From NCBI GenBank assembly GCA_023245035.1, contig JAHFLD010000002.1:1501-65500 (forward strand): 64,000 nucleotides of DNA, written 5' to 3'. A model generated the notes under the pieces. That model did no database searches, had not been told where the DNA came from, and saw only the letters and a program-made list of their open reading frames with translations. The DNA comes from Candidatus Harrisonbacteria bacterium. GTDB lineage: Bacteria; Patescibacteriota; Minisyncoccia; UBA6257; 1-14-0-10-40-38. Positions 3,001 through 44,654 of this stretch are shown here, in pieces. Within the stretch, counting starts at the first letter, position 1, and every line of letters starts with the position of its first letter. The position numbers and the translations under genes are program-made.

Positions 3001-6000
3001 ACCGCAACCGGAAGTTTGTTGGTTGCGAACGCGACTTCCACCATCACTAATCTGACGACGGTCAATGCCACTTCCACCAACGCGACCTCGACGACTCTTT
3101 ACGTTTCCGGTTCGGCGATATTTGCCGGCGCCTCGACCACGATCACCAACCTCAATGCCACCTTCGCCTCGCTTGTCTCCACAGGCGGCGTCTTCGCTTC
3201 GGGCACTGGCGCGGTTTCGGGACTCCTCACGCTCTACTCGGGCTTTATATCCTCGGCCTCCTCGAGTATCTCTTCGAACCTGAACGTCTCGGGGGCGCTC
3301 AACGCCTCCTCAACTCTGGCCGTAGGCGGACTTGCGACCTTGACCGGTCTGCAGTCAACCGCCTCGAGCACGCTGCTCAATGTGACCAACTTCAGCGGAA
3401 CGAACGGCACCACGAGCAATGAGGCGATTACCGGTTCGCTGGCCGTGACCGGAGCCTCCTCGAGCATCGCCAATCTCAATTTGGTGAACGCGACCTCGAC
3501 GACGCTCTACACCTCCGGACAGTTCCTCGCCGGGGGCGCCAGCAACACGATCTTGGGGACGCTCTACGGCTCAACCTTCAATCCGCAGACCTTGACCTCG
3601 ACTGGGAGTGTCAACGCCTCGGGCACCTTGGCCGTCTCGGGACTGGCCTCGCTCTACTCGGGCTTTATATCCTCGGCCTCCTCGAGCGTCTCCTCGAACC
3701 TGAACGTCTCGGGGGCGCTCAATGCCTCCTCAACTCTGGCCGTAGGCGGACTTGCGACCTTGACCGGTCTGCAGTCAACCGCCTCGAGCACGCTGCTCAA
3801 TGTCAGCAACTTTACCGCGACCAACGGCACCACGACCTCGGCCACCTCGACCTCCTTGTATGTTTCGGGCTCCTTGGGTGTCAACGGCGCCTCGACCACT
3901 ATCACGAACCTTGTAACCGTGAACGCCACGACAACTAATGCCACCTCGACCTCCTTGTATGTTTCGGGTGCTTTGCGAGTAGCGACCACAACCGCCGGAC
4001 TTGGTTCAGTTTTTGCCTTGCAGGGCAACGCGCTTTTCTCCGGCGATCTCTCTTTGGCTAACTTGATTGCGACCGGTACGACCAGATTTGGCGGAATTAC
4101 ATATACCTGGCCGACGACGCAGTCGGCGGCGTGTTTGAAAAATGACGGCGCCGGAGTTTTGAGCTGGGGCTCGTGCGGTGGAGCCTCCGGATCACAGACG
4201 CCGTGGGCGCAAAACATTGATGCCTCCGGCTTCAGCCTTTCCAATGTAACCAACATTACCGCGACGAATAGCATTCTAATCGCGGCTTCTGGTGGGAATA
4301 TTGGAGGACAACTCTCGGTAGTGGCGACTTCGACCGATAGCATGTTATTCATGGGCAGAGCCGCCTCTGGGCAAACGGGGCATTTGTTTGCTTTGCAAGA
4401 TTCAAGCGGGGTTAATTTGTTCAGTGTGAGCGCTACCGGCAATACCTTTGCTTCATCGTCATTGCAAGTTTCGGCGACGACGACCTTGTATGGCGATATT
4501 GTTTTGGACTACACGACGACCGACAGACCGCGTGTTTTGAAGATTGGCGCGCCTAACGGAAATCCCCGAGGTTTGTGGATTGCCACTACGACTGGTGCGG
4601 CCTTAAATACTCCAGGAACTTGGCCATTACTTGTGGTGCAGTCAACTACGACTGGGATGTTGGATTACGCACGAGTTGGGATCGGTACTTCTACAACCTG
4701 GGGTGAGGCGGGCTTGCGGGATCAGTTGACTGTTGCCGGAAGAGCCTACACAACTTGGCAGTACGCGTCGTGTGACTTTGCGGGAGCGTCGCTTACAGCC
4801 GCCGTCGCCGCGGCAACGAGCAATGTTTGCGGTCCCTTTGGATTCTTTATCCATCAAGCCGGTTCGTTGAGTCCTGGTACCACGACACCAACATATGTGA
4901 AGCTCAATTCTACGGGAGGCAGTATTGGTCAGGGGGCGATGCTTGGTACCGTGCCAAACTTTATTTCGGCGACCACCAGTCCGGTACTTGAGGCCTGGGT
5001 TTCGGTGACGAGTATTACAAACGGACATTATCAAGTTGGTTTCTTCGGTGCCACGAGCACGACTTGGGATCCGGCTTGGCAGATGAATAACGGCATCTTC
5101 TTTGTGGCGGAACAAAACTTGAATGGTGGTAACTGGACGGCGGTTAACAAGCGGACGAATATTGATGGCACGGTGGCGAGTACCACAATCGATACCGGCA
5201 TTCCCGGGGCGAGTGGTTTTTCGGCGAGTGGCGTGGCCCAGTATCGGCGCCTTAGAATTGAGGTTAGTACCAGCACAATTTATTACCTGATCAATGGGAG
5301 AATTGTGGCACAGTTGAGTACCACAACTCCGTCCAGGAATTTAACCCCGGCGGTAACGGTGGCCAGTGTTTACGCCGCTGCTAGAAAGGATCTCAACTTA
5401 AGATTGTTGCGCCTATGGAATGACGATCCGGTTGGGGGCGAGGTTGTCGGGGCTCCAGCTTTGGACGACTCAACTCCGGAAGTTTCCGATTTGGATCGCA
5501 ATCATACCGCCGGCAAGTTCTTCTTTACCGGAACTACGACGCCACCCGAGGGCAGTCTGGTTTCCTATGATTACGGGGCATCGACTCATAAGAGTGGATT
5601 GTGGGTAGGTTACGCCACAACAACTTACGAATCCGGTTTGGCTGGCGTCGTGGCCAGTGAGGGTAATTCGGCTCTGCGCTTTGGTTCGGGCGATATTGAT
5701 GTGGCTTTGAGTGGCAAGGCGATGGTGCGAGTAAGCGCTGTGAACGGTGAAATTCATGCCGGGGATTATCTGACTTCGAGCGAGGTTCCAGGTGTGGCGG
5801 TTAAGGCGACGCAATCGGGCTGGATTATTGGTCAGGCCTTTGAGAGTTATTCCGGAGGCGGCGAAGGGGCGGTCTTGGCGAATATCGCCCCCGAATTTAT
5901 GACGGTTGATAAACAGTCAGCTTCCGGCGTGATTGATTCTATTACCGAGACGGTTTCGGAATTGGCGGATTTTGTGGCGCAGAATAGCGCGAAGCTAGTG

Positions 6001-7249: not shown

Positions 7250-8036
7250 TGTTTTTCGCCGATCAGTTTTCGGAACAGGGGGGTTGTGGTTAATCCCTCT
7301 GTTTCTTGTTTTTTGGTTGGTGACACCGGTTTTGGCCACGGACTTTTCGGGAACGAATTTTATTATCAAGGATCCCGTGTTGAACGGTTCTTCCGGCTCG
7401 GCCACTTCCAGCAGTTTTGGTTTGCGGGGAACAATCGGGGAGCTTGGCGTGGGGCTTGGAACTTCAACTAACTTTGGTCTTCGCTCCGGTTCGCTTTATT
7501 TTCCGACACCGCCAAGCCCAAGCCCATCACCAACGCCGAGCCCATCGCCATCGCCAAGTACCGGCGGCAGTCCGTTTATTCCCCAGGTAGGAGTCGTGCC
7601 GCCGCTTTCGGCTAATATTTTGGTGAACTTGGCGAATATTATTCCGGTTTCCAATTGCAAGAATCCGGCTTTGAGGCGTTCGGATTATAATTGCGACGGC
7701 AAGGTAAATTTGAGAGATTTAAGCATTCTTTTTTCGGCTTCAGTTAAAAACGTGGCGCGCAATTTGAGCTTCTTGTTCTCTGACTGGACCGAGATTTTGC
7801 CGCGCTTTGCCACGCCGGAGACCTCCTCGCCAAAACAAATTGCCACGACACCGACGAATTTTGGCCGCGGGGTTTCGCCGACATCCCAGTTGGCGCAAGT
7901 GGGCGGAGCCGCTCAACGACCGGTTGATCTTCCTTCCTCTGGTGTGCAGTCTTTTTTTGGTAAGGTTAAGCAGTTGGTTAAGGATGTCTTATCTTTAGTA
8001 TTAACTGTTTTTCGCCTGTTGCCATTTCGGTTTTAG
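7164..8036 (+). CDS. Secreted Pro/Thr-linker protein with a single dockerin-like calcium-binding repeat; start uncertain
   Basis: Signal-peptide-like segment LWLIPLFLVFWLVTPVLA, then a PSPSPSPTPSPSPSPS linker and the motif DYNCDGKVNLRDLSILF, which matches the dockerin D-x-N-x-D-G-x-V-N-x-x-D consensus. The ATG at 7164 overlaps the previous ORF; TTG 7284 is an alternative start. Confidence 0.5.
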   Translation: MRSFAMILKFLRPSMILRILVQVASRLISVFRRSVFGTGGLWLIPLFLVFWLVTPVLATDFSGTNFIIKDPVLNGSSGSATSSSFGLRGTIGELGVGLGTSTNFGLRSGSLYFPTPPSPSPSPTPSPSPSPSTGGSPFIPQVGVVPPLSANILVNLANIIPVSNCKNPALRRSDYNCDGKVNLRDLSILFSASVKNVARNLSFLFSDWTEILPRFATPETSSPKQIATTPTNFGRGVSPTSQLAQVGGAAQRPVDLPSSGVQSFFGKVKQLVKDVLSLVLTVFRLLPFRF

Positions 8037-31706: not shown

Positions 31707-31765
31707 GGGTTTTGTCTTTAGCTTCTAAATATTTTGCCTTTTTTGGGCGCGGACGACCGGATTTT

Positions 31766-31896
31766 CACCTCACTTCGTTCTTTAAGAACCCACGGTTCTT
31801 AATCTTTTCCTTCACGGAGGGGACGCAGTTGCTTCCCCTCCGACCCACCCCTCTTTCAAATTCGGTCGACTTTTGCTTTGTGATTTTGTCTTTTTT
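31766..31896 (-). mobile_element. Structured ~130-bp insertion downstream of tRNA-Asp (family copy 1), flanked by a duplicated tRNA 3' end
   Basis: A copy of the tRNA-Asp 3' end (gggcgcggacgaccggatttt) occurs at 31744-31765. In minus-strand reading the order is target end, degenerate reverse-complement of the target end (cgaccgaatttgaa), core aggggtgggtcgg + hairpin ggaggggaagcaactgcgtcccctcc + hairpin ttaagaaccgtgggttcttaa, then the direct copy. Confidence 0.6.
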
Positions 31897-31973
31897 GGCG
31901 CGGACGACCGGATTTGAACCGGCGATCTCTACCGTGACAGGGTAGCGCTTTGGACCAGCTAAGCTACGTCCGC
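31897..31973 (-). tRNA. tRNA-Asp (anticodon GTC), CCA encoded
   Basis: Minus-strand sequence GCGGACGTAGCTTAGCTGGTCCAAAGCGCTACCCTGTCACGGTAGAGATCGCCGGTTCAAATCCGGTCGTCCGCGCCA. Confidence 0.85.
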
Positions 31974-32066
31974 ATAGATGATAGTATTGCAGTATTGGAA
32001 TATTTTTTCAATTCTTGGCATTGCGTATCAGAATATCGTAGCTATAAGTCCATGGATTGGTTGCCT

Positions 32067-33392
32067 TCAACTGAGATTTTTTACCAGTTTTTTGAAATAA
32101 AGGCCGCGTTCTTTAGCGTTGTGAAATTCGTCAAAACTGGCCGAGGCGGGGGAGAGCAGGACGACAATGTTAGAATTTTTGGGGTTTAGGGCGATTTCTT
32201 TTTTAGCCAGGGCATAACCAGAGACGAGGGCGGCGGCTAGATTTTTGCGCGAGCTGATTTTTTGCGACAACCTGGCGGCGGTGAGTTCTTTTAAGATTTT
32301 TTGCTGATTTTCTCCATAGAGTATGATTTTTGAGACTGAGCTTTTTTTAATCACTCGCGCCAATTCTAGGTAGCTAAGATTTTTGTCTTTGCCGCCGAGA
32401 AGTAGAATCGTCGACTGATTTTGAGCGCGGATGGCGGCCATGGTACTACCCGGGTTGGTGGCGGCCGAGTCGTTGATGAATTTTATCGCGCTGTTTTTGG
32501 TTTTGATTTGACGGACAAGTTCCAGCCGGTGCTCCAGTCCTTTGAAGTTTTCAACGACCCTTTGAATCGTGGTTTCCGGAACATTTAAATAACGGCAGAC
32601 TGCCGCGGCAAGAGTCAGATTTTTTCGCGGAGTGTTTTCATCGGGTGTTATCGGATGGCGTTCGGCCGGACTTTGCTTCAAAACCCGGATGACATTTTTA
32701 TTGTCGGCGAAGAAAAAGACCGGCTGATTGGTGGATTGAAAGGCGGTGAGGTTTGATTTGGCTTTAAAATATTCCCCAAGGCTTCGGTGATTGTCTAGGT
32801 GATCGGGAAATATATCCACGAAGACCGCGATATCGGGCGAGGTTTGGAGATCCTGAAGTTGAAAGCTAGAGAGTTCCAAGACGATGATTTTTGGAACTGG
32901 CTTGGCTTGCAGGAGATCCAGCATGGGGATTCCGATGTTGCCGGCGAGCGCGGATTTTTTGCCGGCGCTCCGCAGTATTTGGTGAATAACAGTGCTTGTG
33001 GTGCTCTTGCCCTTGGTGCCGCTCACGCCAATTAAAAGCGGTTGGGGATTTTTCCGGCGAATTTCCTCAAAAAATATTTTGGTGGCGCTGGTCAGGGTCG
33101 CGCCGTTTTTTGCGGCCGCTTGAAGCTCCGGCGTGTTGAACGGAAGACCAGGCGAGCGGATGATTAGGTTATAGTTAGCGATGTCGGAGAGATAGTCTTT
33201 GCCGACGCGCAGTTTTATTTTTTTGGCCAGGGCCGGCGGAATTGCTTTGGATATTTTGGGGTCTCGGTCAAGAATAAAAATTTCGGCCGGGCGGTAGATC
33301 GGATGAGACAAGAGAAAACGCAGAGCTGATTTTCCTTCGGCGCCGAAGCCGGCGATAGCTATTTTCATGGGTTTAGTATAGGTGCTCCACAC
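32067..33392 (-). CDS. murD: UDP-N-acetylmuramoyl-L-alanine--D-glutamate ligase MurD
   Basis: Mur ligase P-loop GVSGTKGKSTT. N-terminal Rossmann IAIAGFGAEGKS. 441 aa. Confidence 0.85.
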   Translation of the reverse strand: MWSTYTKPMKIAIAGFGAEGKSALRFLLSHPIYRPAEIFILDRDPKISKAIPPALAKKIKLRVGKDYLSDIANYNLIIRSPGLPFNTPELQAAAKNGATLTSATKIFFEEIRRKNPQPLLIGVSGTKGKSTTSTVIHQILRSAGKKSALAGNIGIPMLDLLQAKPVPKIIVLELSSFQLQDLQTSPDIAVFVDIFPDHLDNHRSLGEYFKAKSNLTAFQSTNQPVFFFADNKNVIRVLKQSPAERHPITPDENTPRKNLTLAAAVCRYLNVPETTIQRVVENFKGLEHRLELVRQIKTKNSAIKFINDSAATNPGSTMAAIRAQNQSTILLLGGKDKNLSYLELARVIKKSSVSKIILYGENQQKILKELTAARLSQKISSRKNLAAALVSGYALAKKEIALNPKNSNIVVLLSPASASFDEFHNAKERGLYFKKLVKNLS

Positions 33393-33529
33393 TCAAGGTT
33401 TCAAGGTTTGGGATTATCTTGCATGGGTATTTTGGAATACCCCTCGACTACGCTCGGGGTTATATGCGCTTCATCCCCGGCCTAAAACGGCCGGAGTTTG
33501 CTGATGTTGCGCATATAAAAAAACCCGGC

Positions 33530-34294
33530 TTAAAGCCGGGTTGAGCGACGACTGAGTCGTACTCTTTCTAACCAACCTTCAATTTCTCGCAGAGCGACGA
33601 ACTCCGGCGTGTTCGGGTTGACGCCATCTTCGTGAGTTCCAAAAATGCTCTTGTGGGTGAAGTTTTGAGCCGTGATCAGAGTTCTTCCTTGCGCCTTAGT
33701 GGCGGCATCAAAATACATTTGCGGTATTTCGCGCGGAACCACTTCATCGGCGCCCCACTGGAGAACGAGCAATTTTCCATTGAACCCGGCCATGTTGTCC
33801 CAGGCATCAGAATCTTGCCAGCTTCCTTCTCGCCGAATGGCTTCGGTGAACTTGGAGCCGAACGGAATTTTCTCCGCCACAACTTTTTTGTCGTAGGCGG
33901 CCGGCGCCACCAGAATCAGGGTGTCGTCTTTTCCCAGAAGATCAACTAAGTGACTCGCGATATAGCCGCCCATGCTTTCGGCCACGATTACGACTTCGGG
34001 GGGATCGTATTCGTCTTGGAGTTTGGTCAAGTTGGCGCGGGCATCATCAACCCGCGTGTGCAGTCCGCTAACCGAGAAATCTTCGCCTTGGTTCATGCCT
34101 CGAAAATCAAAGGCCGCGATTAAGCCGCCCTTGGTTAACCTTGCGATCTCCATCATGGTCGGCAGAGTCTTGCCACGCCGATTATTGCGCGATCCACCGT
34201 AAAGCGGTACCAGCAAACGAGTGACCTTCTTCGGACTGACGTTGTCAAACATGAGCAACAACTGACCGTTCTTTTCCACTCCCTGGATTTGCAT
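33530..34294 (-). CDS. Alpha/beta-hydrolase fold protein
   Basis: GxSxG nucleophile elbow (AESMGG). 254 aa. Confidence 0.6.
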   Translation of the reverse strand: MQIQGVEKNGQLLLMFDNVSPKKVTRLLVPLYGGSRNNRRGKTLPTMMEIARLTKGGLIAAFDFRGMNQGEDFSVSGLHTRVDDARANLTKLQDEYDPPEVVIVAESMGGYIASHLVDLLGKDDTLILVAPAAYDKKVVAEKIPFGSKFTEAIRREGSWQDSDAWDNMAGFNGKLLVLQWGADEVVPREIPQMYFDAATKAQGRTLITAQNFTHKSIFGTHEDGVNPNTPEFVALREIEGWLERVRLSRRSTRL

Positions 34295-34429
34295 GCGTTA
34301 GCTCCCGATGAGGACGGCGCGCATTCATTTTGAAAGAGCCACGTGCATTCTTCCATATCGTTTACACGATGTCAAAATTAAGATATACTCCTGGCTGTCG
34401 CCAAGCTTAGTTTTTGGCGGCGCTTTTAT

Positions 34430-34503
34430 CCCGGGGTAGAGCAGCCCGGTAGCTCGTCTGGCTCATAACCAGAAGGTCGCAGGTTCAAATCCTGCCCCCG
34501 GAA
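34430..34503 (+). tRNA. tRNA-Met (anticodon CAT), probably initiator (C1 x A72 mismatch)
   Basis: CCCGGGG...CCCCGGA acceptor with an unpaired 1-72 position. CTCATAA anticodon loop. Confidence 0.8.
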
Positions 34504-34590
34504 CAAGGGATAAGTTTTCGCACAGGCGGTTTTTTGGATCGGCGCTATGCTGGGCGTAGGACTTTAAAATTTTTATGAAGGAGTTTTGGA

Positions 34591-35514
34591 ATGAGACTTT
34601 TTAAAACTCGCGCCGCGAAGTGGCTTTTGGTTTTTTTTATTGGTTTGGGGTTTGTTGCTTTGTGCGGAGTTCGTTTTTTTACGGTTGATGCTCGGACTCC
34701 GGTGAGCGTGGCCGCGGGTTATATTCAAGCCAAGCGCGGGGACAGTTGGTGGCTTACTTTGGCTCCAACGCTTTTCTCTGACGAGGATATTTTAAGGTTG
34801 CGGTCACGGCATCAGGGAATTGTGGACGCCATGCATAAATTTCGAGATCTTTCGCCGCAGACGCGAGAGTTGGCGGGGCTTTTACCGCGAGTTGTGCCGA
34901 TGGTGGCGTTAGCCGGTGGTTCGGCCGAATGCTTGCTTCGCGGGGAGAAGGATGGCTTGTTGCCGGCTGGAGCGATTGAGTTTTGCTATATTCCGCGAGA
35001 TTTTGTTGGGGAACATGCCTATCGGTTTTATTGCCGACATGATTGGCCGGCGGTTATAGCTGTCGCACTGGACTATCCGCAATTAGTGGCCGCGGCGCTT
35101 TTTTTCCACGAATTGGGACATTTGGCTTCGAAGTTCGATTGGCATATTTCCAGTTTGGAAGCGGAGCTCAATCCCAAGGTATTAAGCGAGGAGGTTCGGC
35201 TCTACGAGTTGGAGACATTAATTTTTGACGCGGGGACTGGCGGATCTTTTAGCCGTTTTTTGGATGAGGTGCTGGCGCGAGAGCCGATAAGTAGCAAGCG
35301 CGAAGCAGTTCTCGCGCTGACTGCTTCCGACATGAAGCATCTGGATCAATTGTTGGCCGCGGGTGATTCGGGTTACTTGATGGGAGCGATACTGGCGTTT
35401 CGTTATCAGATGGCGATTGGTTTGCGTTATTTGCGAGTAGCAGGAGTGGGGGATTTTGATAGCGAAGCGCTGGCTCTTTACCGCTGGATCGCGGGTGCAG
35501 TTGAGCAGAAATAA
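34591..35514 (+). CDS. Membrane-anchored putative zinc metallopeptidase (HExxH)
   Basis: N-terminal TM helix. HELGH motif in FFHELGHLASKF. Confidence 0.5.
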   Translation: MRLFKTRAAKWLLVFFIGLGFVALCGVRFFTVDARTPVSVAAGYIQAKRGDSWWLTLAPTLFSDEDILRLRSRHQGIVDAMHKFRDLSPQTRELAGLLPRVVPMVALAGGSAECLLRGEKDGLLPAGAIEFCYIPRDFVGEHAYRFYCRHDWPAVIAVALDYPQLVAAALFFHELGHLASKFDWHISSLEAELNPKVLSEEVRLYELETLIFDAGTGGSFSRFLDEVLAREPISSKREAVLALTASDMKHLDQLLAAGDSGYLMGAILAFRYQMAIGLRYLRVAGVGDFDSEALALYRWIAGAVEQK

Positions 35515-35583
35515 ACCGGTCTTAATGGGCCGGTTTTTTGCGCGTTTTCCAAAAATCTAATATGCTGTTCTGGTGCTTAATTT

Positions 35584-35655
35584 GCCGACGTAGCTCAGTG
35601 GTAGAGCGGACGTTTCATAAGCGTTAGGTCGCAGGTTCGATCCCTGCCGTCGGCA
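35584..35655 (+). tRNA. tRNA with CAT anticodon (elongator Met or Ile2/lysidine), CCA not encoded
   Basis: GCCGACG acceptor. D-arm GCTCAGTGGTAGAGC. Anticodon loop TTCATAA. T-arm GCAGGTTCGATCCCTGC. Confidence 0.8.
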
Positions 35656-35656
35656 C

Positions 35657-35801
35657 AAAAAGAAAATTGGGTAGCTTGTCTACCCGGTTTTCTTTTTAAT
35701 GTTTTGAGGCAGGGATCGAACGGGAAAGGGGTCGGGAAACGGTAGTTTCCCGTGGTGGAAATATTAAAACCGCATGGTTTTAAAAGCGAAGCGCGTGAGA
35801 T
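35657..35801 (+). mobile_element. Structured ~145-bp insertion downstream of the CAT tRNA (family copy 2), flanked by a 16-bp duplication of the tRNA 3' end
   Basis: tccctgccgtcggcac occurs at 35641-35656 and again at 35802-35817, the second copy followed by cca. Between them lie a terminator hairpin, the reverse-complement of the tRNA T-arm (ggcagggatcgaac), and the core aaggggtcgggaaacggtagtttcccgtggtggaa...aaaaccgcatggtttt, which has two hairpins. Confidence 0.7.
35669..35698 (+). terminator. Rho-independent terminator after the tRNA (gggtagcttgtctaccc + T-run)
   Basis: Perfect 6-bp GC-rich stem followed by ggttttcttttt. Confidence 0.7.
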
Positions 35802-35913
35802 TCCCTGCCGTCGGCACCACGTAGGGAAGATTGATGCCTCGCGCGGGCTTTGCCTTGTATAGCGCACTGAAGTTGTGTGTATTCTTCAAGCTTTGCGTAC
35901 ATTCTTCAAGCGT

Positions 35914-35948
35914 TGTTGACAATCAGGCATTTATTTGCTATCCTACAA
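35914..35948 (+). promoter_or_regulatory. Sigma70-like promoter (TTGACA-17-TATCCT) for the 36030 ORF
   Basis: ttgacaatcaggcatttatttgctatcct. An AAGGAG RBS lies 10 nt before the GTG start at 36030. Confidence 0.5.
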
Positions 35949-36029
35949 AAGGATAAGCCATAGTGGCTTATTCGCTTCACTTAGCGATCTTGGGACCACT
36001 CAAGACGCAAAGAAGAAAGGAGCAGAGTC

Positions 36030-36476
36030 GTGTCAAGTCTAGTTCTTTTGAATCGCGACGGAAACGTTGCCCGCAAGCTCCAGCTGGTCTCTCTGCCGAA
36101 CGATTACGTCGTTCCGGAGGGGATGATTGTAAGCTGGAAAACGGAGCTTCGCGCTTCTTCCACGGATCCGTTTGCTCGATGGCGCGCTCCTTCTGAGCCG
36201 ATTGAGGCTTTTTTCTATCTTGGCAACGCGCAAGGGCAAGTGTCTCGGAGCGGATTCAGGGAGGTTGAGCGTGGTGCGGAAAACCGTCCCACGAGATTCT
36301 GTGTTCGGGATCTGGTCGTCACCGTGCAGGGCGTTTCCGCGAAGAACGTGATGGAGTTGCGTGACCGCGTCATGGACATCATCAATTCGGGAATCGGCTG
36401 GAATGTCAGCAACGACCTGAATCCCAAGCCGAAGCTTGGAATTTTGTCGAGGTTCAAGAAGTTGTTGGGGCATTAG
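36030..36476 (+). CDS. Hypothetical protein (GTG start, strong RBS)
   Basis: 148 aa. AAGGAG at 36014-36019. The antisense ORF 36039-36473 is judged spurious. Confidence 0.55.
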   Translation: MSSLVLLNRDGNVARKLQLVSLPNDYVVPEGMIVSWKTELRASSTDPFARWRAPSEPIEAFFYLGNAQGQVSRSGFREVERGAENRPTRFCVRDLVVTVQGVSAKNVMELRDRVMDIINSGIGWNVSNDLNPKPKLGILSRFKKLLGH

Positions 36477-36636
36477 ACCGCCACTCCCAACCGGGCCGCT
36501 TAGTAGCGAAAGCGAACAGCGGCCTTTTTTTGAATTTCAAGAAAATTGGCACAATTCTGGACAAGTTCCTTTCTTGACTTTTTTACTATCTATAACGTAC
36601 TATCGTTCTTAGTTCCTTTTTTCAATGGAGGTTTCT

Positions 36637-36993
36637 ATGTGGCAGATGACTTACCTCGTTGCGAAAACTCGGGAAGGATTCAAGAAGGATTGGCCGAGCA
36701 AGTTTTTTGTTGCCGTGCTTTTAGTCGCCTACTATTTTCCGGTTTTCAAGCTGATTGACGCCGGGGTTCTGGCCAAGGACTCGCTTTTGCAACTAGGCCT
36801 AACCTTTAGCATCATGGTTGGCTTTGTAGCCTACTTGGCCCTCGCCTACATCCTAGGGATCGGTTTTCCGCGGTCGCTGAAGACTTTGCGTAATCATCTT
36901 GTGACCTTAGTCTACGGCGTTATTTCTCCGGTTGCTCTTTTCGCCTGGCTTGTGTTTTTTTGCCGCGATGGTTATTACGTGAACAGAGTTTAG
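36637..36993 (+). CDS. Hypothetical membrane protein
   Basis: GGAGG RBS 5 nt before ATG 36637. Three hydrophobic helices. Confidence 0.5.
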   Translation: MWQMTYLVAKTREGFKKDWPSKFFVAVLLVAYYFPVFKLIDAGVLAKDSLLQLGLTFSIMVGFVAYLALAYILGIGFPRSLKTLRNHLVTLVYGVISPVALFAWLVFFCRDGYYVNRV

Positions 36994-37071
36994 TCGGTGG
37001 TTCGCGTGTGCCCGCTTTCGTAGCGGGCGCTTTTTTTGCTTTTTTATGATAGTCTTTTCCTGCGGATTAGA

Positions 37072-37374
37072 ATGAAAATACTTATTAATTCATCGGCGCA
37101 GAAGCCGAAAAATATCAATCTGATTTTGCGCCAAGCCGGTTATCATCCGGAAGTTAAACAGCGCACCGGCGAGTTGTCTTTTGTGCGGAGCGCCACCGGA
37201 CGGCCGTTTCCCAGATTCCATGTTTATGTGGACGAGGTGCCCGAAGGCTGGATGGTGAATTTGCATTTGGATCAAAAACAGCCGACTTACGAGGGAAGTT
37301 CGGCGCATAATGGCGAATATGAGGGGGTGATTATAGAGGAGGAGGCGAGGCGCATTAAATGGGCGGGGAGGTAG
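37072..37374 (+). CDS. Hypothetical small protein
   Basis: MKILINSSAQKP... About 100 aa with no recognised motif. The upstream ATG at 37036 is also possible. Confidence 0.4.
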   Translation: MKILINSSAQKPKNINLILRQAGYHPEVKQRTGELSFVRSATGRPFPRFHVYVDEVPEGWMVNLHLDQKQPTYEGSSAHNGEYEGVIIEEEARRIKWAGR

Positions 37375-37495
37375 TCTTTTTGGTTTGGTGCTCGGCTTTG
37401 TCTCGAATCTCAACTCGCGCAATTCAAAGGCAAAATCTGGTTTGCCAAGCTTTCGCTTTGGCCGATTTTTTGCTAGGTTTTATGGATAGAGTTTT

Positions 37496-38719
37496 ATGGC
37501 ACAGATTATGAAAGACAATTCGGCGGAAAATTACCCTTTCAAGATTGAAGTTGATTCAAAACCAGCTCTGACCGGTGGGGAATTGATTTCTTATAGCGAT
37601 CCGGCGGAGCAGGAAGTTCTGGCCAAGCTAAAGGGGCGCGATGATTTTGAGGCGCAAAGATTGCAGCGCATTTTGGCCTTGCCGGATTTGACGCGGACTA
37701 AAAACTCGCCGGTCAAGTTGGTTATAGACAAGATTCTGACTGTGCCGGATTTGCGCGGTTTTGACGTGGTGAGCATTCCCGAGACTATTAGTCCGGCGAA
37801 TAATTTTGATCTTTTTGATTTTCCGGCTGATCATCCAACGCGGAGACCGACCGATAGTTATTTTTTGACTCCGGAGCGAATGTTGCGCACACAGACAACT
37901 TCCATGTGGATGTATCACCTAAAAAATCCGGCGACGGTTAAAAAAATGGAGTCGCGGGGTTTTATGGGCCTTCTTTCCTACGGCAAGGTTTATCGCAAGG
38001 ACGAGATTGATCGCAAGCACTTTCCGGTTTTTCATCAGATTGACGGCTTGTATCTCGTCAAAAAAAGCCAGAAGGTTTTGACTTTGCAAGATTTGCATAA
38101 TGTTCTGACTTCAATAGTCGGGGCGGTTTTTGGCCAGGCGGCGGTGACCAGGTTTTTGCCGGACGCCTTTCCCTATACCGATCCGAGCACGCAAATGGAG
38201 GTGAAGTTCGGCGAAGACTGGCTGGAGATTTTGGGGGCGGGAATGGCGCGGGGAAGCACCTTGGCCAAACTCGGAATTGATCCTTCGGTTTATGGGGGTT
38301 GGGCTTTTGGTTTTGGGGTGGAGAGGTTAGCTATGCAAAAAATGCAAATTCCGGACATTCGAATCCTATGGTCAACCGATCCGCGAATCACCGGGCAATT
38401 TACAAGCATTGATAGTGTTTACGCGCAGGTTAGCCGCTATCCGGAAATTATTCGCGATATTTCTTTTATTGTTCCTCGAGATGTTGTGCCAAATCGGTTT
38501 TATGAAATTGTCCGCGAGCTTGGCGGCGACTTGGTGGAGGAGGTGAAGTTGATTGATGAGTACGAAAATGAGGCGAAGCTGGGGCCACAGAATAAGAGTT
38601 ACACCTTCCGCACGATTTATCGTTCTTTTGAACGGACTTTGACCGGAGAAGAGGTAAGCAAGATTCACGCGGCGGTGGAGGATTTTTTGAGGCGGGAACT
38701 GGGGGCGGGGATTAGGTGA
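37496..38719 (+). CDS. pheS: Single-chain phenylalanyl-tRNA synthetase-like class II aaRS (PheS-type catalytic core fused to FDX-ACB-like anticodon-binding domain)
   Basis: Motif 1 region DHPTRRPTDSYF. Motif 2 YRKDEIDRKHFPVFHQIDGL. Motif 3 GWAFGFGVERLAM. The C-terminal YPEIIRDISFIVP segment resembles the FDX-ACB domain of mitochondrial-type monomeric PheRS and of PheT. No pheT is adjacent in this window. Confidence 0.7.
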   Translation: MAQIMKDNSAENYPFKIEVDSKPALTGGELISYSDPAEQEVLAKLKGRDDFEAQRLQRILALPDLTRTKNSPVKLVIDKILTVPDLRGFDVVSIPETISPANNFDLFDFPADHPTRRPTDSYFLTPERMLRTQTTSMWMYHLKNPATVKKMESRGFMGLLSYGKVYRKDEIDRKHFPVFHQIDGLYLVKKSQKVLTLQDLHNVLTSIVGAVFGQAAVTRFLPDAFPYTDPSTQMEVKFGEDWLEILGAGMARGSTLAKLGIDPSVYGGWAFGFGVERLAMQKMQIPDIRILWSTDPRITGQFTSIDSVYAQVSRYPEIIRDISFIVPRDVVPNRFYEIVRELGGDLVEEVKLIDEYENEAKLGPQNKSYTFRTIYRSFERTLTGEEVSKIHAAVEDFLRRELGAGIR

Positions 38720-38782
38720 GCGCCTTTGCTTTTGAGGCGGCTTTTTGCTATAATTTGGGTGTAATCGAGTGATGATTTTTAG

Positions 38783-40849
<2,067 letters not shown>

Positions 40850-40937
40850 GCTTGGGGTATGAGCGATTGCGTTTTTTGCTTTTTATTGACCGGATATTAT
40901 TTTACTGATATACTCCAATCCATTAAAGATTCAGCCC

Positions 40938-41126
40938 ATGACTATTCGGTTAAAAAACTTTTGGGAGTCGGCTAAGCAGGAGTTTCGGCGGGTTAATTGG
41001 CCGAACTGGAATGAGACGCGATCACTAACACTGGTAGTGATTGTTTTTTCCGTTGGAACGGCCTTGTTTTTGGGCGTGTTAGATTTTGTGTTTACCTACT
41101 TATTGCAGGTTTTCTTTTTGAGTTAA
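40938..41126 (+). CDS. secE: Preprotein translocase subunit SecE
   Basis: 62 aa, single C-terminal TM helix. Conserved position before nusG. Confidence 0.75.
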   Translation: MTIRLKNFWESAKQEFRRVNWPNWNETRSLTLVVIVFSVGTALFLGVLDFVFTYLLQVFFLS

Positions 41127-41138
41127 CAGCTCGCTTTT

Positions 41139-41705
41139 ATGGATTCATCCTCAAAACAAAAACTTTCCGCAGGAAACAACGAGCGCCATTGGTACGCGAT
41201 TCATACCTATTCCGGCTACGAGGACGCGGTGGTGCGTTACTTGCGCCAGCGCGTGGATTCGCTGGGCATGAACGACAAGATTTTTAACATCATTGTGCCT
41301 TTGGAGAAAAAGGTAAAGATTAAAAACGGCAAGCGTCGCGAGGTTTCCGAGAAAATTTATCCCGGATATGTTTTAGTAGACATGGCCTTGACCGACGATT
41401 CTTGGTACGTGGTGCGCAATACGCCAAGGGTGACCGGTTTTGTTGGGTCTGATAGCACGACACCAGTTCCGCTTTCCAAGTCGGAGATAGACCTTCTGAT
41501 GTCTCGCATGGGCAATCAAGAGACGAAGTTTAAGATTGATCTTCAGGTTGGCGAGTCGGTTAAGATTACCGATGGGCCGTTTAAGGATTATGACGCCAAG
41601 GTTTCGGAAGTTGACGAGGAGAAGGGCAAGGTGAAGGTGTTGGTGCCGATTTTTGGGCGCGACACGGTGGTGGAGTTAGACTCACTTCAAGTCCAGAAGC
41701 TCTAA
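41139..41705 (+). CDS. nusG: Transcription termination/antitermination factor NusG
   Basis: NGN domain WYAIHTYSGYEDAV. C-terminal KOW (GESVKITDGPFKDYDAKV). Confidence 0.9.
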   Translation: MDSSSKQKLSAGNNERHWYAIHTYSGYEDAVVRYLRQRVDSLGMNDKIFNIIVPLEKKVKIKNGKRREVSEKIYPGYVLVDMALTDDSWYVVRNTPRVTGFVGSDSTTPVPLSKSEIDLLMSRMGNQETKFKIDLQVGESVKITDGPFKDYDAKVSEVDEEKGKVKVLVPIFGRDTVVELDSLQVQKL

Positions 41706-41724
41706 GGCGCCCTATCTTTTCTTC

Positions 41725-41825
41725 GCATTTCGTTGTCGTAACCTGCGTCAGTCGGTCGCGGTACTGTGACTTAAGTACCGCTTCCTCCTTTACTCGGTTA
41801 CTCCTAGAACTGCAAAGAAAATACA
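41725..41825 (+). repeat. Conserved ~90-bp intergenic module, copy B (between nusG and rplK)
   Basis: ttcgttgtcgtaacctgcgtcagtcggtcgcggtactgtgacttaagtaccgcttcctcctttactcggttactcctagaactgcaaagaaaatac. Aligns with copies A and C. Confidence 0.75.
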
Positions 41826-41976
41826 CGGGCGGTGTGGGGCGTTGCAAGTTCATTAGTTCTGTCACATATTTTGTTTAGCGAGTTGGAAATTGTAGCTGTC
41901 TTGTTTTTTGCTCGTATTTGTTGGAGTTTGCATTTTTACCCTAAACCCTATAAGCTAATCGCTAAACGCTATTTAT

Positions 41977-42399
41977 ATGGCCAAACCAATCAAAACCGTA
42001 TTAAAACTTCAGCTGGATGCGGGCAAGGCGAATCCCGCGCCGCCAGTCGGAACAGCTTTGGGACCTCACGGCATTAATATCGCCGATTTTTGCAAGAAAT
42101 TTAACGAAGCTACCAAGGACATGATGGGGGATGTGGTTCCGGCGGAAATCACGATTTTCGAGGACCGCACTTTTACTTTTAAGCTCAAAACTCCTCCGGC
42201 GTCTTCGCTTTTAAAAAAGGCGGCGGGAATCGAGAAGGGATCTGGTGAGCCAAACAAGAAAAAAGTGGGAACAGTGACTAAGGCTCAAGTTCGGGAGATT
42301 GCGGAGAAAAAAATGATAGATTTGAATACGACCAACTTGGAGGCGGCGGAGAAGATTATCGCCGGCACGGCGAGAAACATGGGGATCGAAGTTAAATAG
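41977..42399 (+). CDS. rplK: 50S ribosomal protein L11
   Basis: [34 protein letters not shown]. 140 aa. Confidence 0.93.
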
Positions 42400-42571
42400 A
42401 CCCCCATGTTTCTGTGAAGGGGTCGGGAAACGGTAGTTTCCCGTGGCGGAATTATTCAAACCGAGGGGTTTGAAGGAGGAGTGAAGCGACGACGAAACAT
42501 GGGTCTAAACGTTACCGAGTAACGTCGCCCGATCTTTGCTAGGCAAAGATTTAGGGATCGAAGTTAAATAG
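42400..42571 (+). mobile_element. Structured insertion downstream of rplK (family copy 3), with a duplicated rplK 3' end and a 31-nt core identical to copy 2
   Basis: The rplK end agaaacatgggg is followed by its reverse complement ccccatgtttct (42402-42413). The core aaggggtcgggaaacggtagtttcccgtggcgga...caaaccgaggggtttg follows. Direct copies of the rplK end then recur as gaaacatggg (42494-42503) and gggatcgaagttaaatag (42553-42570). rplA does not follow. Confidence 0.65.
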
Positions 42572-42972: not shown

Positions 42973-43923
42973 TTGGCTATGATCCATAAAAACTTTTGGC
43001 ATTATTTTGGGGTTTTGATGGCGATTATTGTGGTTAATGTGGGGTTTCTTAATTTTTCAACCAGTAAGATTGCCAGCGAGGTTGATACCTTGTCGAGTGT
43101 AATTACATCTACCGGTTCTTCGCCAACAGCGGCGGCTCCGGCCGAAGAAGTCGGTGGAACTTCGGGTGGCGGGTCTTCTCTAACTCAAAGAATTTGCGTT
43201 GACGATCCAAGTCCGGAAAATGACGGAATGAAGCCGGAGTTCGGTAAGGATGGCAAGATAGCCGGCGCCACTTATTCTTTAGAGTTCCAAAATGGAATAC
43301 CAGCCGATCATCGCAATCCAAATGGGACTCCTTTTACAATTGGTCAATATATTGCCGGGGTTAGTGTGTTTGGCGTTGACAGAAGTGAAGCGGGGGGTCT
43401 GGCCGATAGTGATTATAGCTATGACAACAACGATTCGGCTAAATGTGATGGAGTGCAATTAGATAAGGGTCGTCTCTTTAGTCCATCTTCCTACTATGGT
43501 GGTGTCGCTGGCAAGGTAAATGGCAAACCTTTTAGAGCTACCCTTTCCGTTGGTGTTGACCAGGGCAGAGATTGCAAAGAGTTAGGGCCCATTACAGCGG
43601 CAGAAAGCAAGCCGGTAAATACGAGTGGGAGTGCGAATCCAGTACTTAATCCAAATTCTTCGGCGGTAGTAGTTACCGAACAGGGTGGATCTTCCGGACA
43701 GCAGGGTGCGGTTATTAGCTCTGAATCCGGGGCGGTGGTATTGGAATATTTCTGCGGTTCAGATAATCACATCAAGGCGAAATACGTGGCCAAGGTAAAT
43801 AAGAGCGTTAATAAGAGAAAATATGCCCCAACTTTTCCCGCGAGTTCGGGCTTGAACAATCTGCTTAGTGATTTTGGATGGGGTCGGTTATTGGGTAGTT
43901 ATGCTTTTGGTTTTAAGGATTAA
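42973..43923 (+). CDS. Hypothetical secreted/membrane-anchored protein
   Basis: N-terminal TM/signal helix FGVLMAIIVVNVGFLNF. Paralogous N-terminus to the next gene. Confidence 0.55.
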   Translation: MAMIHKNFWHYFGVLMAIIVVNVGFLNFSTSKIASEVDTLSSVITSTGSSPTAAAPAEEVGGTSGGGSSLTQRICVDDPSPENDGMKPEFGKDGKIAGATYSLEFQNGIPADHRNPNGTPFTIGQYIAGVSVFGVDRSEAGGLADSDYSYDNNDSAKCDGVQLDKGRLFSPSSYYGGVAGKVNGKPFRATLSVGVDQGRDCKELGPITAAESKPVNTSGSANPVLNPNSSAVVVTEQGGSSGQQGAVISSESGAVVLEYFCGSDNHIKAKYVAKVNKSVNKRKYAPTFPASSGLNNLLSDFGWGRLLGSYAFGFKD

Positions 43924-43946: not shown

Positions 43947-44654
43947 ATGATCCATTCCAGATTTTTAATCTTTTTTAGTATTTTGCTGGGAATTGTGGTT
44001 TTGAATGTTGTTAGTCTTAACATTTTGGTTGATAAAGTGGCGATGCGAGTGAGTGAGGTTAAAAGCGAAGTTTCTTTGGCAAGTGCCAGTTCGGCAGTGT
44101 CTGGACAGGTAGTTAGATTTTGTGCCGATACGGATCATGCGATTGATTACGCGGTGTCGGGGGCGACGATGGAGGTCAGCATTCCGAGTCAAGGAATTTT
44201 TGGCGGGGCGAGTTATCCAAGAAATCCAACTCGGGTAACCGATGCCTTATCGTTGATTCGCGCCGGTCAGCCGACGGTTAGCAATCCCACCAATATTGGC
44301 CCTTGTACGCAGGCTGGCGGCTATTTTACCGATTCAGCCGGGAGGAGGCAGAGTTTTTATTTTCAGCTGTGCCGAGATCAGGGAATTAATACCGGATCTG
44401 GTTCGGTTAAACCCGGCGAGCCGCCGATTCAGGGTTCTGGAATTAAACGCCTTACGGAATTTTATTGCAGTCGTAATTCTTTGACTTCCGTTGATAAAAC
44501 GGTGCCAAACTTCGCGAGCGCAAAAGTGCCTTTGTTCTTTGGTTTTTTTGGGCGATTGGCTGATGCTTTGGGAATTACCTATGCCAATCCGCCGGTGGCT
44601 TCCGGCAATTTGACGACGCAGTGGTTTGTGAATGCCGATCACGAGACGCAGTAG
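43947..44654 (+). CDS. Hypothetical secreted/membrane-anchored protein (paralog of upstream gene)
   Basis: MIHSRFLIFFSILLGIVVLNVVSLNILVDKV parallels MIHKNFWHYFGVLMAIIVVNVGFLNFSTSKI. Cys-containing extracellular domain. Confidence 0.55.
   Translation: MIHSRFLIFFSILLGIVVLNVVSLNILVDKVAMRVSEVKSEVSLASASSAVSGQVVRFCADTDHAIDYAVSGATMEVSIPSQGIFGGASYPRNPTRVTDALSLIRAGQPTVSNPTNIGPCTQAGGYFTDSAGRRQSFYFQLCRDQGINTGSGSVKPGEPPIQGSGIKRLTEFYCSRNSLTSVDKTVPNFASAKVPLFFGFFGRLADALGITYANPPVASGNLTTQWFVNADHETQ

Follow-up and report, generated by a model that had tools for sequence, protein, structure and literature searches.

Small folded elements flanked by copies of the host gene's end occur behind tRNA and protein genes of Patescibacteria

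In the window, that is the whole 64 kb stretch of DNA that was analysed, three homologous elements are located downstream of two tRNA genes and of rplK. Each of them is a folded insertion of roughly 90 nt without a protein, flanked by copies of the last 15-30 bases of the host gene, and the arrangement is always the same: the intact end of the gene (X1), a spacer, this end inverted (X'), a conserved core, and this end once more in direct orientation (X2). About 85 further copies, nearly all of them in Patescibacteria genomes, were detected with a covariance model and by pattern scanning. We tentatively explain them as non-autonomous insertion elements of one family that extends across the Patescibacteria and may be spread by snap-back or template-switch copying; the element appears to be of a new kind.

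Results

Elements of the window

A covariance model made from 73 family members returned exactly these three copies from the 64 kb, at 60-70 bits, the next best match having 10.7 bits. Together with the exact repeats this confirmed both the positions and the architecture which the initial annotation had given to the three copies. The exact target duplications are 19 nt (31746/31897), 16 nt (35641/35802) and 18 nt (42382/42554) long and lie 151-172 nt apart, and an inverted copy is present in each case (31858-31870 on the minus strand, 35708-35721 and 42401-42412).

Copy 1
31896-31973, minus strand: tRNA-Asp (GTC), host gene (ARAGORN; Rfam tRNA, 70.5 bits)
31897-31915, minus strand: X1, duplicated 3' end of tRNA-Asp, from T-loop/T-stem to the 3' end (exact 19-nt repeat with 31746-31764)
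31871-31895, minus strand: spacer between the tRNA end and X' (from the sequence)
31858-31870, minus strand: X' gtcgaccgaattt, inverted copy of aaatccggtcgtc of the tRNA (from the sequence; predicted to pair with X1 and also with X2)
31767-31857, minus strand: core of a divergent subtype (covariance model 31767-31858, 60.2 bits, E 1e-13), with GGGTC, P2 GGAGGGGA/TCCCCTCC, GTGAAGGAA..ATT and P3 TAAGAACC/GGTTCTTA
31746-31764, minus strand: X2, direct copy of the tRNA-Asp 3' end (exact direct repeat)

Copy 2
35584-35656, plus strand: tRNA-Met (CAT), host gene, X1 at 35641-35656 (ARAGORN, Rfam, repeat)
35657-35707, plus strand: spacer, built like an intrinsic terminator with A-tract, T-tract and a hairpin (35657-35674 / 35680-35697) between them in order, and forming the tip of the long fold-back (inverted repeat I14, fold)
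35708-35721, plus strand: X' ggcagggatcgaac, reverse complement of T-loop and T-stem gttcgatccctgcc
35722-35801, plus strand: core (covariance model 35717-35798, 67.9 bits; three-way junction in the predicted fold), with purine triple strand, GGGGTC, P2 (GGGAAAC-GGTA-GTTTCCC), GTGGTGGAAATATT, P3 (AAAACC-GCAT-GGTTTT), GCGAAGC and GTGAGAT
35802-35819, plus strand: X2, direct copy tccctgccgtcggcac followed by ca (..ACCA)

Copy 3
41977-42399, plus strand: rplK (ribosomal protein L11), host gene, X1 at 42374-42399 (gaaacatggggatcgaagttaaatag) (ORF; Pfam Ribosomal_L11_N/L11)
42401-42412, plus strand: X' cccccatgtttc, reverse complement of gaaacatgggg in rplK (hairpin fold)
42413-42493, plus strand: core (covariance model 42408-42489, 70.4 bits), P2 as in copy 2, P3 CAAACC-GAGG-GGTTTG, end ..GAAGCGACGAC
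42494-42503, plus strand: first part of X2, gaaacatggg (repeat family D11)
42504-42553, plus strand: nested insertion of 50 nt with two hairpins, which splits X2 and otherwise occurs only in L141 of the same species
42554-42571, plus strand: second part of X2, gggatcgaagttaaatag (exact 18-nt repeat)

Copies 2 and 3 have an exact 30-mer in common (35726-35755 = 42417-42446; none is expected by chance), which replaces the identical 31-nt core reported initially and is part of a 58-nt stretch with 88% identity between the two. The inverted copy makes no hairpin of its own; it is one arm of a single long hairpin built from gene end, spacer and X'. This fold-back reaches -53.9 kcal/mol (z = -10.9) in copy 2 (35633-35722) and -21.3 kcal/mol (z = -6.4) in copy 3, and it is formed in 63 of 64 tRNA loci of the family with a median z of -7.4. 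At L147, where we take the target to be rplL, the palindrome is perfect and has the stop codon at its centre. Alternatively, X' is predicted to pair with X2 and thereby to close a three-way junction around the core. In copy 2 the CA behind X2 completes an encoded CCA which is absent from the gene copy; in the whole family the excess of CCA at X2 is not significant (6 observed, about 3 expected).

Distribution and targets of the family

About 100 loci in many genomes, found with the pattern scan and the covariance model, bear out the proposal of a family of small structured insertions that lack a protein, sit at the 3' ends of genes and duplicate their target. A tRNA gene is situated on the same strand at most 250 nt upstream in 71 of 102 elements and only on the opposite strand in none, and the tRNA targets can be of any isotype, at least 18 so far. 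The remaining elements are apparently at the ends of conserved protein genes (rplK, rplL, rpmG, gyrB); we also read a DeoC-like aldolase and unknown ORFs, beside gyrB, among the targets. One copy, L163, stands at the 5' end of an opposite-strand gene, presumably rnhA-like from our own translation.

The breakpoint falls within the gene, namely in the T-loop of tRNAs and 20-85 nt ahead of the stop codon of protein genes. At tRNAs the direct repeat has a median length of 17 nt and usually begins in the T-loop, 15 nt from the tRNA end; in most of the 56 loci examined it ends 0-3 nt from the tRNA end. In eight of the 56 it extends into the unprocessed trailer or terminator, therefore the copied template was DNA or a primary transcript and not the mature tRNA. 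Repeats of protein genes run from the site matching X' to the stop codon and span 24-77 nt. Additionally, tandem and 1.5-unit copies (L060, L062, L067, L103) were recognized, and extra partial tRNA copies starting from the anticodon arm adjoin some elements (L057, L123, L129).

In agreement with the initial view that this is no known type of element, no Rfam family matched, ribozyme families included even at E <= 10, and in the literature we found no paper describing it. The scan of viral contigs gave no element; it is chromosomal in Patescibacteria. No protein family was linked to the element among 92 loci (the commonest was present in 8), none of which had an integrase gene nearby, and the five neighbour families scanned (LepA, Hsp20, CCA-adding enzyme, an uncharacterised HTH protein and one without Pfam match) contained neither recombinase nor reverse transcriptase. 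The suggestion of a retro-element acting at transcript 3' ends is supported as to the gene 3' ends and the target duplication. Its retro part is no more than a possibility: these scans linked no reverse transcriptase to the element, and the breakpoint is located inside the gene rather than at the end of the transcript.

Structure of the core

The core of about 85-110 nt, which encodes no protein, is predicted to fold on the gene-sense strand, as RNA or single-stranded DNA, into a three- or four-way junction. P2 often carries a GNRA-type loop and lies beneath a purine third strand forming A.A-U, G.G-C and U.A-U triples; the tip of P3 (AACCGNGGGTT) and the GUC before P2 are invariant, the joining strands are conserved and the P4 hairpin is optional. 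The core is under structural selection. P2 is paired in 99.3% with 105 double-change cells, and none of 500 shuffles was as good. The triples with the upstream purine strand agree in 300 of 340 cells, the shuffle maximum being 238. P2 covaries strongly and P3 covaries as well, which supports the hairpins of the initial annotation. On the sense strand GGAA, GGGA, GTGA, GTAA and GAGA occur as GNRA-type loops, and ten G.U pairs were counted in P2.

The X'/X2 helix has no wobble bias (34 G.U against 28 A.C), which fits a by-product of insertion that later decays. In 44 of 52 loci X1 is the better match to X', ahead of X2. X2 shows a systematic change in its T-loop part, where GTTCGAAT is replaced by GTGAGAT or GTTCGTAGT, and this change looks to be under selection.

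Occupied and empty sites

Empty sites, for which the initial annotation had proposed a search, were found at rplK. The same codon is occupied in three lineages (the window, L136 and L139) by three different core variants, and the site is precisely empty in two relatives, L015 and L137; the sequence following X2 of copy 3 matches the one directly past the rplK stop codon in L015 (13784). Among near-identical strains no insertion polymorphism was found, all assemblies of the window species being filled. At the tRNA-Asp site core subtype, X' and spacer differ between the window and L015. Furthermore, cores at most three edits apart over about 66 nt are present at unrelated targets (L072, L048 and both L136 copies) with entirely different X'/X2.

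Orthologous copies of the window and L015 show compensatory changes in P2 and P3. At tRNA-Met X2 follows a double substitution by which the acceptor stem of the tRNA differs between the window and L015; it may therefore be maintained identical to the tRNA end, and this hints at a function.

Discussion

In the mechanism that we tentatively favour, the landing site would be the end of a conserved gene, with the break inside the gene and the gene itself undisrupted. The inserted block would consist of inverted gene-end copy, core and direct gene-end copy, placed behind the intact gene end or its terminator, and snap-back or template-switch (copy-choice) synthesis would produce the target-derived flanks during the insertion. 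A core-bearing strand may join the terminal segment of the target at a short microhomology, probably the universal T-loop GTTCGAA in tRNAs and GCGA in several protein targets, then fold back over the structured core and copy this segment in reverse orientation; in this way the end of the host gene would be restored. Both the polymerase, either a reverse transcriptase or a DNA polymerase, and the RNA or DNA intermediate would have to be supplied in trans. Loss should be easy, since recombination of X1 with X2 would leave a perfect empty site.

Some observations speak against this mobility. The patchy pattern at rplK could come from a single ancient insertion with precise losses, the identical cores at different targets could reflect gene conversion among repeats and not recent movement, and phylum-wide conserved unpaired core nucleotides are unusual for a parasite without a dedicated enzyme. 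A pure DNA fold-back predicts duplication of the trailer, which was seen in the eight loci mentioned only.

The main rival, which we regard as unlikely, is a cis-acting RNA module of the host, transcribed together with the tRNA or mRNA that precedes it. X' would toggle between two partners: pairing with X1 would hide the T-arm and the 3' strand of the acceptor stem, or else the last codons, and pairing with the decoy X2 would close the junction. A ligand or protein bound by the conserved junction would set the toggle and in this way govern maturation of the 3' end, stability or termination in genes of the translation apparatus. The riboswitch-like build, with a variable closing helix round a conserved three-way junction and covarying P2 and P3, the two mutually exclusive pairings predicted for X' and its better fit to X1 are in accordance with this, as are the X2 that stays identical to the tRNA end through its substitutions, the selected-looking change in its T-loop part, targets which are mostly tRNA and ribosomal protein genes with a core conserved throughout the phylum, and the tRNA-Met copies common to the window and L015, which are old, yet intact. 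However, only a minority of tRNAs have the element (two of five in the window, so it is dispensable), rplK exists with or without it among close relatives, and the targets include putative gyrB, the DeoC-like aldolase, the opposite-strand 5' end of the rnhA-like gene and unknown ORFs. Moreover, a strong terminator-like hairpin usually lies between gene and X', therefore most transcripts would exclude the module; the missing wobble bias of X'/X2 and the tandem, nested and decayed copies, typical of selfish repeats, also count against it.

A retro-element based on a ribozyme is quite doubtful. Here a small catalytic core with X' as internal guide would act like an HDV, hatchet or trans-splicing ribozyme: it would cleave or ligate at the 5' border of the target stretch that X' pairs with and acquire the 3' fragment of the target as X2, and the chimeric RNA would be reverse-transcribed and recombined beside the gene. 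The layout is indeed that of an engineered trans-splicing ribozyme, in which guide, structured core and downstream 'exon' follow each other. The sense-strand GNRA-type loops and G.U pairs of P2, the orientation at tRNAs, always that of the host gene (71 to 0), repeats ending mostly at the tRNA 3' end as in a processed RNA, and the invariant GUC with a helix order topologically like that of the type III hammerhead agree with it, and HDV-like theta ribozymes directly 3' of phage tRNAs offer a positional precedent (PMC10879173). Conversely, group II introns are reported to be absent from Patescibacteria (PMC13011429). The element matches no Rfam ribozyme family, lacks the hammerhead core motifs CUGANGA and GAAA, and has no linked reverse transcriptase in the loci and neighbour families scanned; L163 is antisense to its neighbouring gene, unprocessed trailers and terminators are copied in the eight loci mentioned, and the CCA excess is not significant. 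Near-identical cores bear unrelated guides, therefore the guide would have to be re-templated and could not evolve by mutation. Close to refuted is the notion that the repeats are attL/attR scars of since-deleted islands, which tyrosine or serine recombinases had integrated at the 3' ends of tRNAs or other genes; the core would then be a leftover arm region. Integrase-mediated insertion classically duplicates a tRNA from its T-loop to the 3' end and keeps the gene intact, a signature that is seen here as well, and the partial tRNA copies from the anticodon arm would also suit it. But one and the same ~90-nt core occurs at over 18 tRNA isotypes and several protein genes, each time with a matching inverted copy lying ~90 nt from the direct one, while att core sites are 6-8 bp overlaps; the core displays RNA-type covariation and base triples, the elements of 100-170 bp hold no cargo remnant, and integrase genes were missing from the 92 neighbourhoods.

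Comparison with known systems

Tyrosine-integrase islands and prophages likewise target the 3' part of tRNAs from the T-loop or the last codons of protein genes, and a direct repeat of the target segment flanks the insert; in both cases the host gene remains intact because a replacement end is supplied. The present element differs in its size of 100-170 bp, the lack of an integrase, the use of one core for dozens of targets, the extra inverted target copy and a covarying folded core instead of protein-binding arm sites. Non-LTR retrotransposons and SINEs, which insert by target-primed reverse transcription, resemble it in the small non-autonomous form, the variable, rather long target duplication and the junction microhomology suggesting template jumps, but this element is bacterial, has no A-tail and no reverse transcriptase partner was found in our scans; its duplication always reaches the gene end and an inverted target copy is present. 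A further parallel is R2, with its HDV-like 5' ribozyme, where target-derived sequence belongs to the RNA structure of the element (PMC3414825).

As in group I/II introns and trans-splicing layouts, a target antisense stands 5' of the structured core and a copy of the post-break sequence 3' of it. The tRNA genes of Patescibacteria commonly contain group I introns (PMC13011429), but these introns interrupt the gene at the anticodon loop, whereas our element leaves the upstream gene intact, has a far too small core and gave no Intron_gpI or group II match in Rfam. The minimal HDV-like theta ribozymes are also small structured RNAs directly 3' of tRNA genes (PMC10879173); those are of phages, while this element is chromosomal, occurs at protein genes too, has another fold without an HDV family match, and adds target duplication and inverted copy.

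MITEs, REPs and REPINs are similarly short, protein-less, hairpin-forming intergenic repeats which depend on trans factors. Here no terminal inverted repeats are encoded by the element, the 'inverted repeats' being target copies, the duplication is long, variable and gene-end-defined and not of fixed 2-10 bp, and an IS or RAYT transposase as parent is not known. Quasipalindrome or fold-back template switching, which gives rise to inverted duplication or triplication rearrangements with microhomology at the junctions, shares the direct - inverted - direct order of segments and the long hairpin-centred palindromes; those events are sporadic mutations, whereas in the Patescibacteria the same conserved foreign core is found each time and the pattern recurs throughout the phylum.

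Three copies of the element in the window

The element is real, widespread and structurally well supported, and the known families of mobile or structured sequences do not explain it. The window belongs to a Patescibacteria genome of the Paceibacterota type, and the best GyrB relatives all fall in that group. Three copies of this folded, protein-less insertion were located in the window, behind the following host genes:

31896-31973, minus strand, tRNA-Asp, host of copy 1 (ARAGORN and Rfam)
35584-35656, plus strand, CAT tRNA (tRNA-Met), host of copy 2 (ARAGORN and Rfam)
41977-42399, rplK, host of copy 3

The common architecture described in the initial annotation was found behind all three genes: the intact gene end (X1), a spacer, an inverted copy (X'), which in these elements corresponds to the left part of X1, the conserved core, and a direct copy of the gene end (X2). 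The target duplication claimed for the same copies was likewise recovered, as exact direct repeats of 19, 16 and 18 nt standing 151-172 nt apart. Copies 2 and 3 have an exact 30-mer in common, where the chance expectation is none. The elements are 100-170 bp long and ORF-free, and the family covariance model, run with its filters off, detected no further copy in the window.

In copy 3 the X2 segment is split at 42504-42553 by a nested 50-nt insertion consisting of two perfect hairpins; the only other occurrence detected for this insertion is in another assembly of the same species. A short-read Logan contig of this species (L014, 6821 nt) starts inside copy 2 and ends just past rplK at copy 3. 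The elements fragment assemblies, so that the counts obtained from MAGs are probably too low.

Core structure and covariation

According to the predicted fold, X' and X2 on the gene-sense strand are able to close a three-way junction around the core hairpins. The pairing that had been noticed in the hairpins is upheld by covariation in both P2 and P3, and the junction itself is conserved. P2 was paired in 99.3% of cases, with 105 double-change cells and 10 G.U pairs, values that none of 500 shuffles reached, and it frequently carries GNRA-type loops. The outer pairs of P3 covary (C-G, G-C, A-U) while its tip is invariant. Ahead of X2 there is either a short GCGAAGC hairpin or the optional hairpin P4 with tandem G.A pairs.

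Immediately 5' of the invariant GGGGTC lies a purine tract whose bases covary with those of P2 in mirror order, A occurring with A-U, G with G-C and U with A-U. For these triples 300 of 340 cells were identical, compared with a mean of 209 and a maximum of 238 in the shuffles, and the mutual information between the tract and P2 nearly equals that of the Watson-Crick pairs. This pattern agrees with the code of an antiparallel purine-motif triple helix, in which the tract would be the third strand. Watson-Crick pairing of the tract with the 3' strand of P2 could be ruled out, because the covariation is mirror-symmetric and does not follow a direct repeat. Triples of the A.A-U, G.G-C and U.A-U types are known singly in the tRNA core and also as a DNA triplex code; to our knowledge they are rare as a continuous natural motif.

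In the helix between X' and X2, symmetric scoring of the wobble pairs gave 34 G.U vs 28 A.C, and this lack of bias leaves RNA-level selection on the helix unsupported. X' fits X1 better than X2 in 44 of the 52 loci. The expanded P3 loops of three loci (L129, L036 and L041) hold extra hairpins only, and an ORF at these positions was rejected.

Family size and host range

Searching a degenerate core pattern against one genome per prokaryotic species yielded at least 120 loci. Among the matches listed, about 75 possess the hairpins, and these belong nearly all to Patescibacteria MAGs from many named lineages; two hairpin-bearing loci have other taxon labels as recorded. The remaining matches listed come from other phyla, are devoid of the hairpins and are due to chance. 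A metagenome scan with the exact P2 added 24 loci, and the covariance model recognized 85 copies in 77 sources, at times several within 8 kb. No element was found in viral contigs, where the loose core pattern gave 13 matches, all hairpin-less and hence attributable to chance. A divergent member was observed at the rplK site of another genome (L139, 5486-5640), in which P2 differs and an additional hairpin separates GGAA from P3. Its core is too divergent for the covariance model, thus the family is broader than the sample studied here.

Target sites and duplications

A same-strand tRNA ends at most 250 nt upstream in 71 of the 102 elements, an opposite-strand tRNA alone in none, and at least 18 tRNA isotypes are targeted. 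The proposal that copies abut the 3' ends of tRNAs or other genes with target duplication was valid for most loci, but it does not extend to all of them: one copy (L163) adjoins the 5' end of an opposite-strand gene, which we read as rnhA-like from its sequence.

At tRNA targets the exact X1/X2 repeat has a median length of 17 nt (51 tRNA loci). Its usual start lies in the T-loop, 15 nt ahead of the tRNA end, with weaker similarity reaching back to about G53. It mostly ends 0-3 nt past the acceptor stem, although in 8 of 56 tRNA loci it runs on into the trailer or terminator for 7 nt or more. At protein-gene targets the repeat spans 24-77 nt, beginning where X' matches and ending at the stop codon, and for the family as a whole duplication lengths lie between 12 and about 100 nt. 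The rplK gene is targeted at the same codon in three lineages, and a gene ending RAPQW.KR in three genomes; judged by their C-terminal peptides, rplL, rpmG and gyrB are further probable targets, in addition to a DeoC-like gene and others.

In 63 of 64 loci a single long hairpin is made up of the 3' part of the tRNA, the spacer and X' (median z = -7.4), and in 40 of them the tip of this fold-back is a terminator-like hairpin. The fold-back of copy 2 reaches -53.9 kcal/mol (z = -10.9), and the junction at the target read as rplL forms a perfect palindrome with the stop codon at its centre. Considering this long fold-back at the gene ends, the inserted block is in effect the core inside an inverted and a direct copy of the gene end.

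An origin of X2 from mature tRNA received no significant support from the CCA test: CCA is present in X2 and absent from the gene in 6 of 48 loci, where about 3 are expected, the reverse case occurs 5 times, and the excess is not significant. In three loci (L057, about 7300-7620, minus strand; L123; L129), partial tRNA copies that begin in the anticodon arm and reach the 3' end were observed 17-85 nt behind the real tRNA and ahead of the element. An acceptor variant that is mismatched to the 5' strand of the resident tRNA-Ala is shared by X2 and the partial copy of L057, which suggests transfer from another tRNA-Ala gene.

Presence, absence and turnover

Presence/absence variation, which the initial annotation had proposed as a check, exists at rplK: the site is filled in the window, in another assembly of its species (L141) and in two further genomes (L136, L139), and it is empty in L015 and L137. 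L015 is the closest different genome (GyrB 86% identical), and there the rplK stop codon runs straight into the sequence that follows X2 in the window, which makes it a precise empty site. L136 and L139 are filled at the same rplK codon with different core variants. Between near-identical strains no polymorphism was detected, as identical GyrB/L11 proteins led to same-species assemblies, all with the same filled allele.

The tRNA-Asp site is filled in both the window and L015, but spacer, X' and core subtype all differ. At tRNA-Met, by contrast, the elements of the two genomes are orthologous; their P2/P3 differences are compensatory, and X2 tracks a double substitution in the acceptor stem. 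Furthermore, unrelated targets with unrelated flanks can carry near-identical cores. Since the flanks vary with the target and the core is constant, either the flanks are made at insertion or gene conversion homogenises the cores. The family also includes tandem and 1.5-unit copies, as well as nested and decayed ones.

Neighbouring genes and motifs

An uncharacterised HTH protein family (177-228 aa, motif G[LM]xLYWGEG) was encountered directly upstream of tRNA genes, at the following loci:

L038, 5475-6161
L158, 1985-2518
L088, 1053-1290
L144, 1000-1665
L107, 807-1430

In at least three loci its TAG stop codon falls inside the 5' end of the tRNA (GGCGTAGCTCAG), and in L088 a truncated copy follows the X2 of an element. 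Its Pfam matches were to HTH alone, and the solved structures offered no useful match. It looked LAGLIDADG-like to us, and it could, as a guess, be a free-standing homing-endonuclease-like gene; its occurrence beside some elements is treated as an observation separate from the element.

The motif GTCCTCGCTGG occurs in the window in pairs (42706, 42778, 61874, 61964); three of the four copies are exact and one reads ATCCTCGCTGG. Both pairs are found within long structured spacers: the first follows the rplK element, the second stands just upstream of an mraZ-like start (about 62010). Several copies of the motif stand in the same rplK spacer of L015 (13900-14300). An HDV-like reading of the motifs downstream of rplK was rejected, having no Rfam support and a misfit in the P3 pairing.

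Phenylalanyl-tRNA synthetase is encoded in the window (37496-38719) as a single 407-aa chain with a class II core and an FDX-ACB domain. The single-chain form is a layout known from mitochondria; L137 has the usual separate alpha and beta subunits. After rplK, where rplA is expected, the ORF at 42973-43923 matched no Pfam family in our own scan, and the second ORF (43947-44654) has none in the precomputed listing. Ribosomal protein L1 may be absent from this genome, and its absence has been reported for some Parcubacteria. Long direct repeats with a 420-nt period and exact blocks of up to 80 nt at 3079-3940 look like part of a large repetitive coding region.

Possible mechanism and significance

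We tentatively propose that the element might represent a new class of prokaryotic mobile elements, a module of about 90 nt that encodes no protein and could, by its own fold, drive its snap-back or template-switch copying into conserved gene ends throughout the phylum, with inverted and direct copies of the gene end being made. In RNA or in single-stranded DNA, the driving fold would combine the junction with the purine triple helix. The element would target the ends of genes that are essential and conserved, the universal T-loop being a portable landing pad at tRNA genes, and the core would be copied by snap-back or template switch with a polymerase supplied in trans. As both copies of the gene end are made each time, the host gene would survive. 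Copying by snap-back or template switch is suggested by the direct-inverted-direct layout, the palindromes, the microhomologies at the junctions (T-loop; GCGA) and the partial extra units; the mechanism as a whole is what we infer. An RNA intermediate is favoured by the GNRA loops, the G.U pairs, the fixed orientation and the repeat ends at the tRNA 3' terminus; a DNA intermediate is favoured by the copied trailers, the purine triplex code, the GCGAAGC hairpin, the L163 copy and the lack of a reverse transcriptase among the recurrent neighbours at 92 loci.

A serious rival to mobility is that the element may be a 3' RNA switch acting on the host gene for the benefit of the host, given the phylum-wide conservation of the core and an X2 that seems to be maintained identical to the tRNA end. 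However, the position 3' of genes and the presence/absence variation at rplK argue against such a switch.

Patescibacteria genomes are tiny and streamlined, yet they tolerate many copies of the element beside tRNA and ribosomal protein genes. Were the element mobile, it would insert harmlessly into essential genes with no enzyme of its own, and it would account for the partial tRNA duplications of these assemblies and for the places where their contigs break. As a host device, it would amount to an RNA switch in a 3' position that acts on the translation apparatus of organisms lacking many standard regulators. On either reading the core is a compact fold with a covariation-backed run of A.A-U, G.G-C and U.A-U triples, and the element is amenable to direct tests in cultivated Saccharibacteria and in vitro.

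Comparison with known elements

That the element resembles no known family, as was first suspected, is in agreement with the database searches: Rfam had no match to it, and the integrase scar, the MITE, the introns and the known ribozymes each fail a defining test. At the gathering score Rfam recognized only tRNAs in the whole window, and with permissive filters (E <= 10) the regions of copies 2 and 3 gave only unrelated families at chance level. The comparison took in hammerhead, HDV, hatchet, pistol, twister, group I and II introns, tmRNA and YrlA. No description of the element was found in the openly accessible full-text literature.

The direct repeat of the target 3' end and the restored gene recall the attL/attR of integrase-type integrative elements, but a length of 100-170 bp with no ORF, and no recombinase in the five neighbour families scanned, speak against integrase-mediated integration. 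All-against-all clustering of 979 ORFs from 92 loci revealed no linked enzyme and no family in more than 8 loci; the commonest neighbour families scanned were LepA, Hsp20 and the CCA-adding enzyme. Group II introns, retrons and DGRs were rejected, as no reverse transcriptase is among the recurrent neighbours (92 loci, up to 22 kb). The signs of a non-LTR/SINE type are mixed: most repeats end at the tRNA 3' end, trailers are copied in a minority of loci, and the CCA test gave no significant excess. Bridge/seek RNAs of the IS110 type lie as guides in the non-coding end of an IS with a DEDD recombinase gene and have a core duplication of 2 nt only, whereas no recombinase ORF adjoins our element and its target duplications are long. 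A MITE has its own terminal inverted repeats and a short target duplication of fixed length, whereas here the inverted segments vary site by site, equal the local target and accompany duplications of variable length.

A group I intron requires the P3-P8 catalytic core (about 200 nt or more) and interrupts its host gene. Our core contains 2-3 hairpins in only about 85-110 nt, Intron_gpI gave no match, and the host gene stands intact upstream. The group I introns of Patescibacteria tRNAs sit in the anticodon loop and are unrelated to the element (PMC13011429), and HDV-like theta ribozymes have been found behind phage tRNAs (PMC10879173); these two publications come closest to the element but deal with other subjects. 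The element has the topology of a type III hammerhead and GUC before P2; however, a hammerhead needs the NUH cleavage triplet, helices I and II separated by CUGANGA, and helix III preceded by GAAA, while the P2-P3 strand of the element is GUGNNGGAANNAUU and most subtypes have no conserved GAAA after P3. With riboswitches the element has in common a conserved junction, covarying hairpins (P2 and P3) and a segment, X', with two alternative partners.
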